Positions 27,701 to 33,700 of a stretch of 64,000 nucleotides of DNA are shown here, in pieces. The DNA is taken from the NCBI RefSeq assembly GCF_051903065.1, contig NZ_CP178439.1. One strand, given 5' to 3'. The stretch is from Escherichia coli (GTDB lineage: Bacteria; Pseudomonadota; Gammaproteobacteria; Enterobacterales; Enterobacteriaceae). Position 1 is the stretch's first letter. Each line of letters begins with the position of its first letter. Made by a program: the position numbers.

Positions 27701-30700
27701 AAAGCGCAGTTTTTTATGACGCAGATAATTTTCTGGATGATGGCCGCAACAGATGGCCACGCTAAAAATTTCAGTATTTCTATTGGGCCACAGGGACGTT
27801 ATCACCTTACACCAAACTATGATGTGTTGTCGGCATGGCCGGTGATCGGTCATGGGAACAATCAGATATCCTGGCAGAAGTGCAAACTGGCGATGGCCGT
27901 ACGTGGCAGTAGCAACTATTACCAGATATATCGAATACAACGACGCCACTGGATCAGGCATGGTGAGATAACCGGCCTGAGTAAACAGCAGACAGAGGCG
28001 ATGATAGAGGAAATCATCGCCAGAACCCCGGGTGTCATTGAACGTGTTAGCGGGCTTCTTCCGGACCAGTTCCCCCAGCAGCTTGCGGAAAGTATTTTTG
28101 ATGGAATGAGGCAGCAATGCAGGCGCCTGGCTGAGAAATGACAGCCGCAATTTATAGTGTGCATGTTTTCAGAATAGCTGATGTAAGCGTGAGGATTCAG
28201 TATGACTGAAGAACAAAAAAGAATAGAGCGGGCTATTGAGTTGGCTTGTCGTTACGGCGGAACCGATGAAATGCATCATCTGCAATGGGTCGTGGATCAG
28301 ATGGTAAGAGAACTTGCTGGAGAACGTTATGCACAGATTGTAGCTGATGCCACCAGCGGAGAAGATGGGCCTGATACTTACAAATGGAGTGTTGGGATCG
28401 CGCCTTAACAGCTGTCGGTCTGGGGGTGAAAACGTATTCTTCATTCAGCGAATTCCCAGGCTTCACATTAAGACTAAAGCGGCGGCCGCAGTAACGTAAG
28501 AGAAAATAAATGGCTATTTTAGCAATCATTGCAGTTATCGCCCTGGGTGGGTACGCCTACGGATTTATTAAAACCCGTGAGCTGAGCGCTTTGCGTAAAG
28601 AAATGAAACTATACGTGGATCGCATGGAAGCGGCGGAGCTGGACTTACACGCAATCAGAAGTGTAGCGGAGCACCGGTTGCACGGTGCAGGTAAACAGTT
28701 TGCCGACCTTTACAGCCGTATCGACGGTGCAACTGTGACGCTGACACCCGAAGATCAGCTGTTACTGGCAACGATGCCATTTAATATTCAGGATGTAGAA
28801 GACATCGTAAACGAGCGCGGTCCAAAGACAATTAGCGGCCGTCCATTCTGGGAAGTTGAGCCAGGCCCGCATGATTATGAATATGGCCCGCAATATCCGT
28901 ATTTCCCAGACCAGCGCTAGGAAGAGATCAAGATGAGAGAGCCAAGACCACGCCATACCTTGCAGGTCATTCGTGTACCTTCTCTGGAGGTTCAGGACCT
29001 GGGGCTGACCAGCTTTGATAGCTGGCTTGACGAGCACGGGTATGACAAAACGAATGCCAGAAATAACCGTACCATCTGGGCGAGAGAAGGCGGATGGCAT
29101 CTGAAACGTTGCAGAAATCTTGAAACTGGCACGGACGATTTCTGGTTTATCGCTTTCGATGGTAAAGGCGGGAAGATTTACCCGCTGAAAACCCAAAGAG
29201 ACTACCGGGCTGCATATCGTAAGCTGGAAGCAGAAGGTTATGCGCCTGCGGTCATCGAGCAAATGACCACAGGCGCAGCATATAACCTGGCCTATCCACG
29301 TTCCACCCTAAAACAAGCTGAGACGGCCACCAGCGAGCCAATTCGGAAACCTGACGTAGATATCCAGGGTGAGCACTGCGAGCGCGTAGTGACGCAACGT
29401 AGTGGCGTGGCACAGGGTAAATTCAAAGCTCTGCTCATCGAGAATTTCGCAGGCCGTTGTGCGGTAACCGGTTGGGTTAATGGAGGTGTCCTGGATGCGG
29501 CACACATTGAACATGGAACCCGGTACAATCCGTCTAATGGCATCCTGATGACTCCAACAATGCATGCGCTGTTTGATGCCGATCTTATGGGCATAGATCC
29601 GGCCACCCTGACCGTTCATTTTAAGCCAGGCATTGAGGTGGGCGAGCTGTTTGAAGGCCGTAAAATCACACCGCTGGTGTACGATCTGGACTTAGAGCGG
29701 CTGGCCGTACGCTGGGCAGAATACCAGGGCCTTGCTCAGGACCAATGAAGGGTGACAGCCAGGTTGTGCCTAAACCTGGCAGTAAAACCTGCATGCCACA
29801 AACCTTTAAATTCTGACTCAAGAGCCTGGCACAAGATAAAAGCGAAATGAAAAGGTTAAAACCGGTGCACCAGACCTCTTAGGTTTAATACCTGAGCCAG
29901 TATACTGGCAGTCTCAGGTAAGTGGGTATCATACACTTCAGAAATATCCACACCGAGATAACCGCAACAGTTAAAGAGCTAAAAAGGACGGTTTTAATTT
30001 TATGAATAAAACAGCTTTAATTATGATTCTGGGAATCCTCGGATGTGGTAAAGCATTTGCAGCCACTGAATTACAGCTCCAGCAAAAACGCGTTATGCAT
30101 TTCTGTGCCAATGCCAGCCTTCCGTTGTTGATTGCCGGTACAACTTATGCGAATACGTCTGACAATGGACGACCAGAAAAAGAAAGAGTGGCAATCCTGA
30201 AAAATTCAGTTGCAAGCTCGACAGCTTATAAAATGGCATCTCCCGGAGTTCAGATGGCCATGATGAGCGTGGTGGAAGATATTGCCGATCCGAAAGAATT
30301 AGCTCTACATCAAAAAGAAGTTAGACGTCTTGGGGCTAGTTATCTTTCCGACAGCGGTGTTTCATGGGCTTCAAAAACTGTTTCACCATTTACAGCCTGG
30401 TGTAACTTTAACCGTTTAGAAAGTTAAGGCTGGCAAGGCGGTTTCTGTTCAGGAAAGTTACTTTCCGTGCGGGGACCGTAAGATACAGATAAAGCTTAAG
30501 GCCTTTGAATTTTTGGAAAGCATTTGAAAATTTCATTGCGCTTGTCTGATATGAAACAGCCCCTGCATTTCTGCAAAGGCTGAAAGAGTGTGTACGGACT
30601 TTGGAAGGAGTGATGATATACGCCTGAGCCATCCCATCACCGCAGACAGGGTAATTAACCCTGACTAAAGCTTTCACCTATTCCGTCGCTCGCAAGCGGC

Positions 30701-33700
30701 TTTCGCACACTAACGAAGGTATGGCCTTTCGTCGGTGTTAAATTTTTCAAACTTTGCTTACTTTGTCAAGGAAGGTGACCGCAGTAGCAGGCACAACTAC
30801 TTTAATCTGTATGAATAATAAGGTAGAACCGGCCAGTGAATGAATGCTTACCCTGAAATCAGGCGGACAACCTTCAGGAATATTGATAGCAAGACTGAAT
30901 CTCTCGCTGCGGCGATAAACATTTCGCCATAACCCTGAACGAGAGTGGTTCATCCATCATATACAGGAGCGTTACATGCGCAAATTTAAGTACATAATCT
31001 GTCACCAGTGCGAAGGCCACGGGACCATGGAAAACCCGGCCTTTGAAAATGGATTCACCCAATCAGAAATGGCTGAGTGGGAGCCAGAAATGCGTGAAAA
31101 GTATTTTGCCGGAGCATTTGATGTTCGCTGTAACGTTTGTGCCGGTGACGGTAAGCTCAGCGTACCAAACGTAGCGGCTATGTCTTTTTCAGAACGACGG
31201 GTTCTGGCAGCACGGCGGCGTGATGAGCGTCTTCAGGCTGCTGATGAACGGCTGTCCCGCCAGGAACGAGCAATGGGGTACTGAGGTGCTACAGCAAAGA
31301 TGAAAATGACGAAGCCAAAACCGGTAAGCCGGATGAAAAGACCGTTTATTAGTGAGCTTGCAGAGCTGGGTTTATCGGGTGAAATTCTTTCAATTCGAAC
31401 TGACGGCATGCAGGGGACGCTCATACCCGATCTTACCGCAGGGGTGAGTGAAGCAGGCCGTGTGAAAACCGGCAACTGGGTAATCTCTGACAAGAGAACC
31501 TTCGACCATGTCGTTCTGTGTGTTGAAAGACAAGATGAGAACCATGATGTGTACGTAGGTAAATTCATCCAGTTACATGTAGCCGCTAATAAGAGCCTTA
31601 AGATCGTCGAAATGGGCGATGTGAAACTGGTGGCCATAACCAGCTCGATTCCTACCACTTTTAATGGTGGGATAAAGAGATACAAAGGGGTTACGTATGT
31701 GTCACTTTCCCAAACAGCTCAAACCACTATCGACTTCCCGAAGCGTATCTACAAAGAGGGCCAGGAATGTACTTCTGTCACCAGTCCTGACCAAGGTCCT
31801 TTCGCCCGGGATGTTAGGTTGAATTGCTACGGGCGATGTGTTGTCACCGGCGTAAGGTCCCCCTGGCGTACTGAGGCCGCGCACTTAACGCCACGTCATG
31901 AAGAAGGCATTCCCGACGTAACGAACGGAATTTTACTTCGCCGTGATATCCATACACTGTTCGACAATGACCATTGCGCCATAAACCCTGACACTATGAA
32001 AATTTACTTCAGCCGGGAGGCCCGGGAGTTGGATGATGATCTCCTGAAATGGCATGGGAATGAGATAGAGACGACACGCATGCAGGTTCCGGTTAACATC
32101 GAAAACCTTCGGATACGATGGCAAAAATTTAAGGCTAAGGATCGTCAGCGTAAATAAAGCCATAAGCTGAACCACGGCGAGGATTAGTCTTGTTCACTAA
32201 ATGACAGCGAGAGATTAAATGCAAACCCAAAAAGAAATTACAGTTGGCCAGATCTGGGAAGAAGTGGATCCAAGACTGATCCGGAAAGTGCGGGTTGTTG
32301 AGGTGGCCTCGTTAGAAGGGCCCAAAGGCATCCTTATCGAAAACGTGGAGTCTGGTCGTAAGAACTGGGCGTCGTCATCCCGCTTTAATGGAAAGCGTGG
32401 AGGGTATCGTCTTATTTCCTGACGGTTTTGCCAATATGGGAAACTGAAGAGGTTGAAACCATCCCGGTGAGGGAGCATATCTGGTAAAGAAGAGTCTTTA
32501 AAAAGGTTTTACGCGACCTGGGATAATAAACGGGAAAACGATACCCAAAAAAAGAATACAGCGATGATAACGATAAGGAATGGTAAGGGCTTCAATATTT
32601 TGAGAAATGCCCTGGCTTCCTTTGCATCTGCATTTCTAATCAAACTGTCCACATAGGGATCACAGCTCTTAGGTTCTGAATTTTTCATATGTTCTGTACC
32701 TGAAATTGATTCCGTATGAGAAAAGGCCACCGAAGTGGCCTCTATCAAAACTGGTGGCAAAAGTTAGATCAGGAAATCATCAAGACTTTTACCGGCTGCA
32801 ATTTGTTCTGCCAGAGCTTTGGGGGTACGGCCCTGTCCAGTCCACGTTTTTGTTTCGCCATTTTCATCAGTAAATGAGTATTTGGCCGGGCGTGGTCCAC
32901 GGCTTTTCTTGGTAGCCGTAGATTTGGCCTGGAATGAGCCAAGCAGCTCTTCCGGGTTGATACCATCTTCTTCCATTAACTTACGCAGGGCGTCAAGTTT
33001 CTCCTGACGAGCTTGCAGTTCGGCAGCTTTGGATGATTCTTCCTGACGGCACTGTTGCAAATAGTCGGTGGTGATAAACTTATCATCCCCTTTTGCTGAT
33101 GGAGCTGCACATGAACCCATTCAAAGGCCGGCATTTTCAGCGTGACATCATTCTGTGGGCCGTACGCTGGTACTGCAAATACGGCATCAGTTACCGTGAG
33201 CTGCAGGAGATGCTGGCTGAACGCGGAGTGAATGTCGATCACTCCACGATTTACCGCTGGGTTCAGCGTTATGCGCCTGAAATGGAAAAACGGCTGCGCT
33301 GGTACTGGCGTAACCCTTCCGATCTTTGCCCGTGGCACATGGATGAAACCTACGTGAAGGTCAATGGCCGCTGGGCGTATCTGTACCGGGCCGTCGACAG
33401 CCGGGGCCGCACTGTCGATTTTTATCTCTCCTCCCGTCGTAACAGCAAAGCTGCATACCGGTTTCTGGGTAAAATCCTCAACAACGTGAAGAAGTGGCAG
33501 ATCCCGCGATTCATCAACACGGATAAAGCGCCCGCCTATGGTCGCGCGCTTGCTCTGCTCAAACGCGAAGGCCGGTGCCCGTCTGACGTTGAACACCGAC
33601 AGATTAAGTACCGGAACAACGTGATTGAATGCGATCATGGCAAACTGAAACGGATAATCGGCGCCACGCTGGGATTTAAATCCATGAAGACGGCTTACGC

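Follow-up and report, generated by a model that had tools for sequence, protein, structure and literature searches.

The 64-kb window analysed here (the whole stretch of Escherichia coli DNA taken from contig NZ_CP178439.1) is backbone DNA of an IncHI2 conjugative plasmid. Between the gene of a 141-amino-acid (aa) orphan protein and that of a small zinc-ribbon protein, both on the plus strand, it carries a non-coding gap of 548 bp (30428-30975). The centre of this gap (30535-30732) is a conserved non-coding island, and we propose that it may form the body of a small RNA (sRNA) gene read from the minus strand, opposite to the flanking genes.

The gap and its conserved island

The stop codon (TAA) of the 141-aa gene occupies 30425-30427, and the ATG of the zinc-ribbon gene stands at 30976, with the Shine-Dalgarno motif AGGAG upstream of it at 30966-30970. 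A first-pass annotation of this DNA had described about 550 bp without a convincing open reading frame (ORF) between a secreted-protein gene and the zinc-ribbon gene, and its coordinates proved exact. Its wording "unusually long" holds in a relative sense, as the gap ranks third among some 50 spacers when an annotated 40.8-kb segment from an identical plasmid is surveyed, but the gap is not unique, as spacers of 603 and 694 bp are longer. The 603-bp spacer is co-directional and lies upstream of hipB on the same backbone (about 25915-26517 of the window; 15616-16218 in locus L018).

The sequence diversity of the gap is small, and three allele classes were available for comparison. Allele A is that of the window and of the majority of plasmids, A' is found in Citrobacter and Raoultella plasmids (L006, L007), and allele B belongs to an E. 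coli plasmid (NZ_CP146020, L004), a K. quasipneumoniae plasmid (L005) and a metagenomic contig (L013). Against L004 the gap as a whole differs by 11.7%, very unevenly distributed: 15% in the left part (30428-30534), 18% in the right part (30733-30975) and 4 of 198 positions, about 2%, in the island between them. Against L013 the left flank differs by 14%, the island by 2.0% (again 4/198) and the right flank by 15.6%. In fact, a 110-bp core (30584-30693) shows no difference from L004 and a single substitution, at 30650 in L013, across all compared lineages. The flanking genes differ from L004 by 0-3.5% (ORF136 0%; HNH1, the first of two HNH genes at the locus, 0.7%; the 141-aa gene 3.5%), and the synonymous divergence (pS) of the three nearest genes is about 0.075. 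The synonymous rate would predict some 15 differences for the island and the rate of its flanks some 32, whereas 4 are observed. The island is thus conserved beyond neutral expectation (about 2%, against 14-18% in the flanks and a pS of about 7.5%), and it does so without coding potential.

Could this low divergence instead mark a tract that IncHI2 lineages once exchanged by recombination or gene conversion, in an island that is itself functionless? The backbone is plainly a mosaic in its divergence: ORF136 and HNH1 stand at 0% and 0.7% against the 3.5% of the 141-aa gene in L004, the 253 bp that separate HNH1 from the 141-aa gene (29749-30001) differ by 2.8% from L004 yet by 18-19% from the metagenomic contigs L013 and L014, and there are about two deep alleles in all. 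We nevertheless hold such a tract to be unlikely. Its limits would need to match a strong promoter-like site on one side and a terminator-like hairpin on the other, and it would have to leave flanks above synonymous divergence around an island well below it. Moreover, allele B has fixed states of its own within the island, common to L004, L005 and L013 (30577, 30694 and an indel at 30722/3), and therefore the conservation is not a recent copy of allele A and speaks against recent exchange. The gap itself is nearly identical in L014.

The coding potential of the gap is poor, as the first-pass annotation had noted in calling its ORFs short and poorly supported. The longest ORF on the plus strand has 30 aa, and the minus strand holds ORFs of 89 aa (with a GTG start), 68 aa and 35 aa; none is conserved and none matches Pfam or PADLOC. 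Most RefSeq/PGAP records leave the gap unannotated, and a few call the 68-aa ORF (30747-30953) a hypothetical protein. This annotation, together with a 35-aa ORF (30640-30533) that is intact in all full-length lineages, is what could be said for a small protein encoded by one of the three minus-strand frames, or for a type I toxin; we find either hardly credible. In the diverged lineages of allele B, frameshifts or truncations affect the 89-aa and 68-aa frames, a 1-nt deletion in the class of insertion-bearing plasmids described below (about 31% of records, e.g. L002) strikes both ORFs that overlap the island on the minus strand (35 aa and 89 aa), every substitution in these two frames is non-synonymous, and the ORFs lack a Shine-Dalgarno sequence. 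With frameshifts in both classes, purely non-synonymous change and no family matches, a protein-coding gene was rejected. A hok/sok-like type I toxin-antitoxin module was rejected as well: no ORF in 30400-31000 pairs a Shine-Dalgarno sequence with the hydrophobic composition of a toxin-like peptide, and the single hydrophobic ORF there (24 aa, ATG at 30922) is without one.

Promoter-like and terminator-like signals on the minus strand

Directly upstream of the island, when it is read on the minus strand, stands a sigma-70 promoter-like site (30769-30742) that matches the consensus at 10 of 12 positions, a consensus match only. It consists of a perfect -35 hexamer, TTGACA (30764-30769), that is invariant in all lineages, a 16-nt spacer and a -10 hexamer, AAAAAT (30742-30747), that reads AAAAGT in L004 alone. 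Sites that score at least 10/12 are scarce: there are six on the two strands of the 64-kb window, or about 0.05 per kb per strand. Transcription from this site would start near 30733-30736, and the conservation begins almost exactly at this predicted start, with differences at 30733, 30740 and 30743. At the far end of the island lies a putative intrinsic terminator, picked up by a terminator scan: a hairpin of 11 pairs, two of them G-U, with a GNRA loop (CAGCCUUUGCA-GAAA-UGCAGGGGCUG, 30557-30582) that is followed by the short U-rich tail UUUCAUAUCA (30547-30556), a weak U-tract. Terminator-like sites occur in the region at chance density (2 found, 1.7 expected). The product of such a gene would be a structured RNA of about 185-190 nt, running from about 30735 to about 30548 through four or five hairpins, the last of them the GNRA-capped one (30582-30557) with the U-rich tail behind it. 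The first-pass annotation, which had singled out the gap as a whole, was silent on the 200-bp island, on these minus-strand signals and on the insertion site (30741-30748) described below.

Structure and strand

The consensus fold of the island has an energy of -68.3 kcal/mol on the minus strand versus -62.9 kcal/mol on the plus strand, and single-sequence folds give z-scores of -1.96 to -2.7 and of -1.4 to -1.6, respectively. The few natural substitutions are consistent with a minus-strand RNA. All three transitions that fall in stems leave a pair on the minus strand only, namely 30577 (G-U to G-C), 30582 (C-G to U-G) and 30650 (G-C to G-U), and at the same sites the plus strand would carry C-A or A-C mismatches; the remaining changes in the island, 30694 and the indel at 30722/3, are in loops. 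The change at 30650 lies in the hairpin CAGGGU-UAAUU-ACCCUG (30648-30664, minus strand) of the invariant core, where one side has changed from C to U in L013; the minus strand then still pairs, as G-U, and the plus strand has an A-C mismatch. We take the evidence on strand and structure as a lead, not as proof.

The same hairpin is, at the DNA level, the palindrome CAGGGTAATTAACCCTG, and this raises the thought that the island is a DNA site, such as an operator, a binding region for a nucleoid protein or a recombination site. A mobile element has inserted right beside the island, and an H-NS family gene is nearby. Such a site is very unlikely in our view, because a uniformly conserved block of 200 bp is far larger than an operator, and we found no repeated motifs beyond chance (9-mers with about one expected by chance). 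Nor is the island the target of the mobile element, since the same element has also inserted at an unrelated AT-rich site. Finally, the L013 substitution at 30650 breaks the palindrome and keeps the RNA G-U pair, and therefore argues for an RNA over a protein-binding site. Two candidate motifs, a 9-nt repeat TAACCCTGA in three copies and an 11-nt inverted repeat flanking the island, were both judged to be chance.

The plus strand and known RNA families

The first-pass annotation had suggested that the gap could hold a promoter or leader, taken here as that of the zinc-ribbon gene and HNH2, the second HNH gene. We found no conserved sigma-70-like site to sustain this idea. On the plus strand of the gap, no site upstream of the start codon reaches 9/12; the one listed at that level (30971-30998) overlaps the zinc-ribbon start codon, and the sole 8/12 candidate in the gap is not kept in the diverged allele. 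In addition, the proximal 243 bp (30733-30975), which end in the zinc-ribbon Shine-Dalgarno motif, are 16-18% diverged and among the fastest-evolving sequence of the region. At the other end, the left part of the gap (14-15% diverged) has a plus-strand stem-loop (30438-30479) that no T-run follows.

Another way to account for the island would be an element that acts in cis within the plus-strand mRNA, either as a conserved 3' untranslated region of the 141-aa gene or as a long leader or intercistronic structure that controls read-through into the zinc-ribbon gene and HNH2. The island is probably transcribed as read-through, because the flanking genes are all on the plus strand and no plus-strand terminator or promoter stands between them, and its hairpins, being largely palindromic, form on this strand too (the consensus of -62.9 kcal/mol given above). 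Still, we consider a plus-strand element somewhat unlikely: the stem substitutions become C-A or A-C mismatches, the fold is no better than that of shuffled sequences (z about -1.4), no riboswitch or leader family matches, the fastest evolution of all falls between the island and the zinc-ribbon start, and in about 31% of plasmids a 4.4-kb insertion parts the island from the zinc-ribbon gene.

Known RNA families were sought with Rfam covariance models, as the first-pass annotation had recommended for the gap, and no relevant family came up: a scan of 29500-32000 with Rfam 15 up to E=10 returned a single match, SNORD95, which at 17.5 bits against a gathering score of 55 is spurious. Its suggestion of an sRNA thus gains no support from Rfam, but it does gain indirect support from the comparative evidence, on the strand opposite the flanking genes. 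A scan of the whole window at gathering thresholds detected RNA-OUT of IS10 (RF00240; 42966-43035, minus strand, 98.8 bits) and AAC_AAD_leader/attI (62959-63034, plus strand, 74.3 bits), both features of the resistance region and unrelated to the gap. RNA-OUT serves as an internal positive control that the scan detects known antisense RNAs; the island has no similarity to it.

A mobile element that splits the proposed promoter

Natural variants bear directly on the proposed promoter. Among 897 plasmid records with the gap, 277 (about 31%) match it just up to 30748, and in the examined examples (L002, L003, L008, L020) a 4387-bp element stands at this position, flanked on either side by an 8-bp duplication of the target AATTTTTC (30741-30748) and bounded by the imperfect terminal inverted repeats GGCTATTTGCAAtCTgAGGTTG. 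Plasmid pEGY1-MCR-1 (NZ_CP023143) is one of the carriers. The insertion splits the -35 from the -10 hexamer. Inside the element a promoter-like site of 9/12 faces outward to the island, and it might replace the promoter that the insertion has split. In other plasmids, such as pYDC637 (NZ_KP056256), IS26 has truncated the island. The island's role, whatever it is, is therefore dispensable for plasmid survival.

The element matches 877 PLSDB records and is absent from the window. Copies were seen in L002 (6449-10835) and, at a second site, in L019 (2501-6602); thus different IncHI2 lineages carry it at two AT-rich intergenic sites, AATTTTTC here and TAAACATA in pC309-VIM4, with 8-bp target duplications. 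Its terminal repeats of about 22 bp (GGCTATTTGCAA...) are reminiscent of IS6-family ends. It has no recognisable transposase, and its cargo comprises a truncated hsdM N-terminus, a 99-aa ORF, a UvrD/GajB-like helicase (679 aa) and a 328-aa protein with a weak CoiA_N match. The element may be a non-autonomous mobile defence cassette.

A candidate sRNA gene

We put at roughly 0.45 the probability that the gap holds an independent, IncHI2-specific sRNA gene on the minus strand, about 185-190 nt long and antisense in orientation to its flanking genes. The observations behind it are that the island is conserved, that promoter-like and terminator-like signals stand at its two ends, that coding potential is absent and that the substitutions show a strand bias. 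That the RNA is made, and what its role would be, we infer from these.

Several points weigh against this sRNA gene. The conservation rests on few independent contrasts, because there are effectively two deep alleles plus sub-variants. The -10 hexamer is without the usual T at position 1 and carries an A-to-G change in L004, and the U-tract after the hairpin is short (UUUCAUAU). The fold z-scores are modest, the three strand-consistent substitutions out of three correspond to p=0.125, and the covariation amounts to four one-sided, wobble-compatible changes with no compensatory pair, counts that are indistinguishable from shuffles and have no statistical power. No Rfam family matches the gap. 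Expression from the proposed promoter must be dispensable, because about 31% of IncHI2 plasmids have it split. Finally, a crude scan by RNA duplex folding against all translation start regions in the window gave no target, as unrealistically long duplexes dominate the energies.

If such an RNA exists, two modes of action could be considered. It might base-pair in cis with transcripts that continue past the 141-aa gene, as read-through, into the zinc-ribbon gene and HNH2, an option suggested by the fact that no plus-strand terminator or promoter separates them. Alternatively, it might act in trans on ribosome-binding sites through an exposed C/U-rich stretch, CUCCUUCC (the complement of 30603-30610). 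The neighbouring genes ranked low as targets in the duplex scan, and a short-word blast of the island against the window found no notable complementarity. Whichever the mode, the function would be accessory and not essential to the plasmid, because plasmids in nature commonly have the promoter split or the island truncated. We found no transcript or sRNA map of an IncHI2 plasmid in the literature. The broader proposal, that IncHI2 plasmids encode an undescribed, family-specific structured sRNA of about 185 nt, placed between two nuclease modules, that regulates the zinc-ribbon/HNH2 pair as an antisense RNA, or host or plasmid mRNAs via CUCCUUCC, is a little more doubtful than the existence of the gene.

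Distribution and known plasmid RNAs

As judged from sequence searches, the island is confined to IncHI2. A distant-mode blastn against plasmids recovered just the roughly 897 IncHI2 backbone records, exact-pattern scans of a collection of species-representative genomes gave no match, and a scan of metagenomes turned up two IncHI2-like contigs plus one match due to chance. Searches of the window and of the other examined loci with a covariance model of the island returned no paralogue. Blastn against phages returned just weak matches of about 50 nt to T4-like phages of Klebsiella, Cronobacter and Citrobacter (79-81% over 30531-30581, E 0.006 to 0.3). The matching stretch, which overlaps the proposed terminator hairpin, is annotated "terminator" in two of the phage records; the similarity is probably convergence or chance.

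Intergenic sRNAs with a sigma-70 promoter and an intrinsic terminator are reported for other plasmids, for example those of the IncL/M plasmid pNDM-HK (PMC5880898) and QfsR of Ti/RepABC plasmids (bioRxiv 10.1101/533729). The candidate resembles them in its intergenic position on a large conjugative backbone, its predicted size within about 100-200 nt, its promoter-like site and terminal hairpin, and its conservation within one plasmid family. It differs from them in that the island has no sequence or Rfam relationship to them, its U-tail is weak and the features of an Hfq-type 3' end are not evident.

Plasmids also encode antisense RNAs such as Sok of the type I toxin-antitoxin system hok/sok, FinP, and RNA I, which acts in copy control. 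Like these, the candidate would be plasmid-borne, structured and opposite to its neighbouring genes, and it could pair perfectly with a read-through mRNA. Unlike them, it has no Rfam match, and its gap contains neither a toxin ORF nor an overlapping gene. With about 185 nt it would be longer than Sok or FinP, and neither a replicon nor a transfer gene is close by.

The plasmid and the neighbouring genes

The gap belongs to a widespread plasmid backbone. The 801 bp around it are found at an identity of at least 99% in 866 of 898 matching PLSDB records, from hosts that include Salmonella, E. coli, Enterobacter and Klebsiella, and 755 of the 898 are predicted to be conjugative. The loci examined were typed nearly all as IncHI2A/MOBH, and among the approximately 897 records with the gap every examined locus with PLSDB typing was IncHI2A with one IncC exception, a plasmid that carries an IS26-truncated fragment of the gap.

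On the plus strand the genes follow in the order hipB, hipA, two small ORFs, HNH1, the 141-aa gene, the gap, the zinc-ribbon gene, HNH2 and a 67-aa ORF. HNH1 (271 aa) and HNH2 (285 aa) both carry the Pfam domain HNH_2 and are distant paralogues, with 31% identity over the C-terminal domain. The 141-aa orphan gene (30002-30427) has a lipoprotein-like signal sequence; a search of 5.8 billion proteins gave no homologue of its product outside IncHI2, and its ratio of non-synonymous to synonymous divergence (pN/pS) of about 0.33 against L004 shows relaxed constraint. The zinc-ribbon gene (30976-31284) encodes 102 aa with two CxxCxGxG motifs and has relatives at about 48% identity on IncHI1B/FIB plasmids of Klebsiella and at about 50% on Pseudomonas plasmids. 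In one such Klebsiella locus (L016) the 294-bp spacer upstream of the zinc-ribbon relative looked unrelated to the gap, and the island covariance model R1 had no match in the Klebsiella or Pseudomonas zinc-ribbon loci.

HNH2 has been lost independently at least twice. In the examined insert carriers L002 and L003 the equivalent of 31010-31773 is deleted, with the start of the zinc-ribbon gene fused to the C-terminus of HNH2, and in the metagenomic contig L013 the deletion covers 31287-31863. The deletion in the HNH2 region and the 4.4-kb insert are separate events, because a Serratia contig (L020) has the insert and not the deletion. Beyond the 67-aa ORF lies a minus-strand hns-family gene cut by IS26 (32764-33120), which encodes 118 aa here and 134 aa (405 bp) in other IncHI2 lineages; the IS26 copy, from about 33049 onward, adjoins and overlaps its 5' end.

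Implications

IncHI2 plasmids belong to the most important carriers of colistin resistance (mcr-1, mcr-9), extended-spectrum beta-lactamase and carbapenemase genes in Salmonella, E. coli and Enterobacter, and much of their backbone is annotated just as hypothetical proteins, with no regulatory RNA annotated in the region examined here. Should the transcript prove nonexistent, the gap would be an ordinary long intergenic spacer on a mosaic plasmid. If the proposal is true, an sRNA of the backbone would offer a handle on the cross-talk between plasmid and host, or on the control of the adjoining nuclease genes. The natural insertion and truncation variants are ready-made comparison strains, and the roughly one third of plasmids in which a mobile helicase-nuclease cassette displaces the promoter would then be natural knock-outs.

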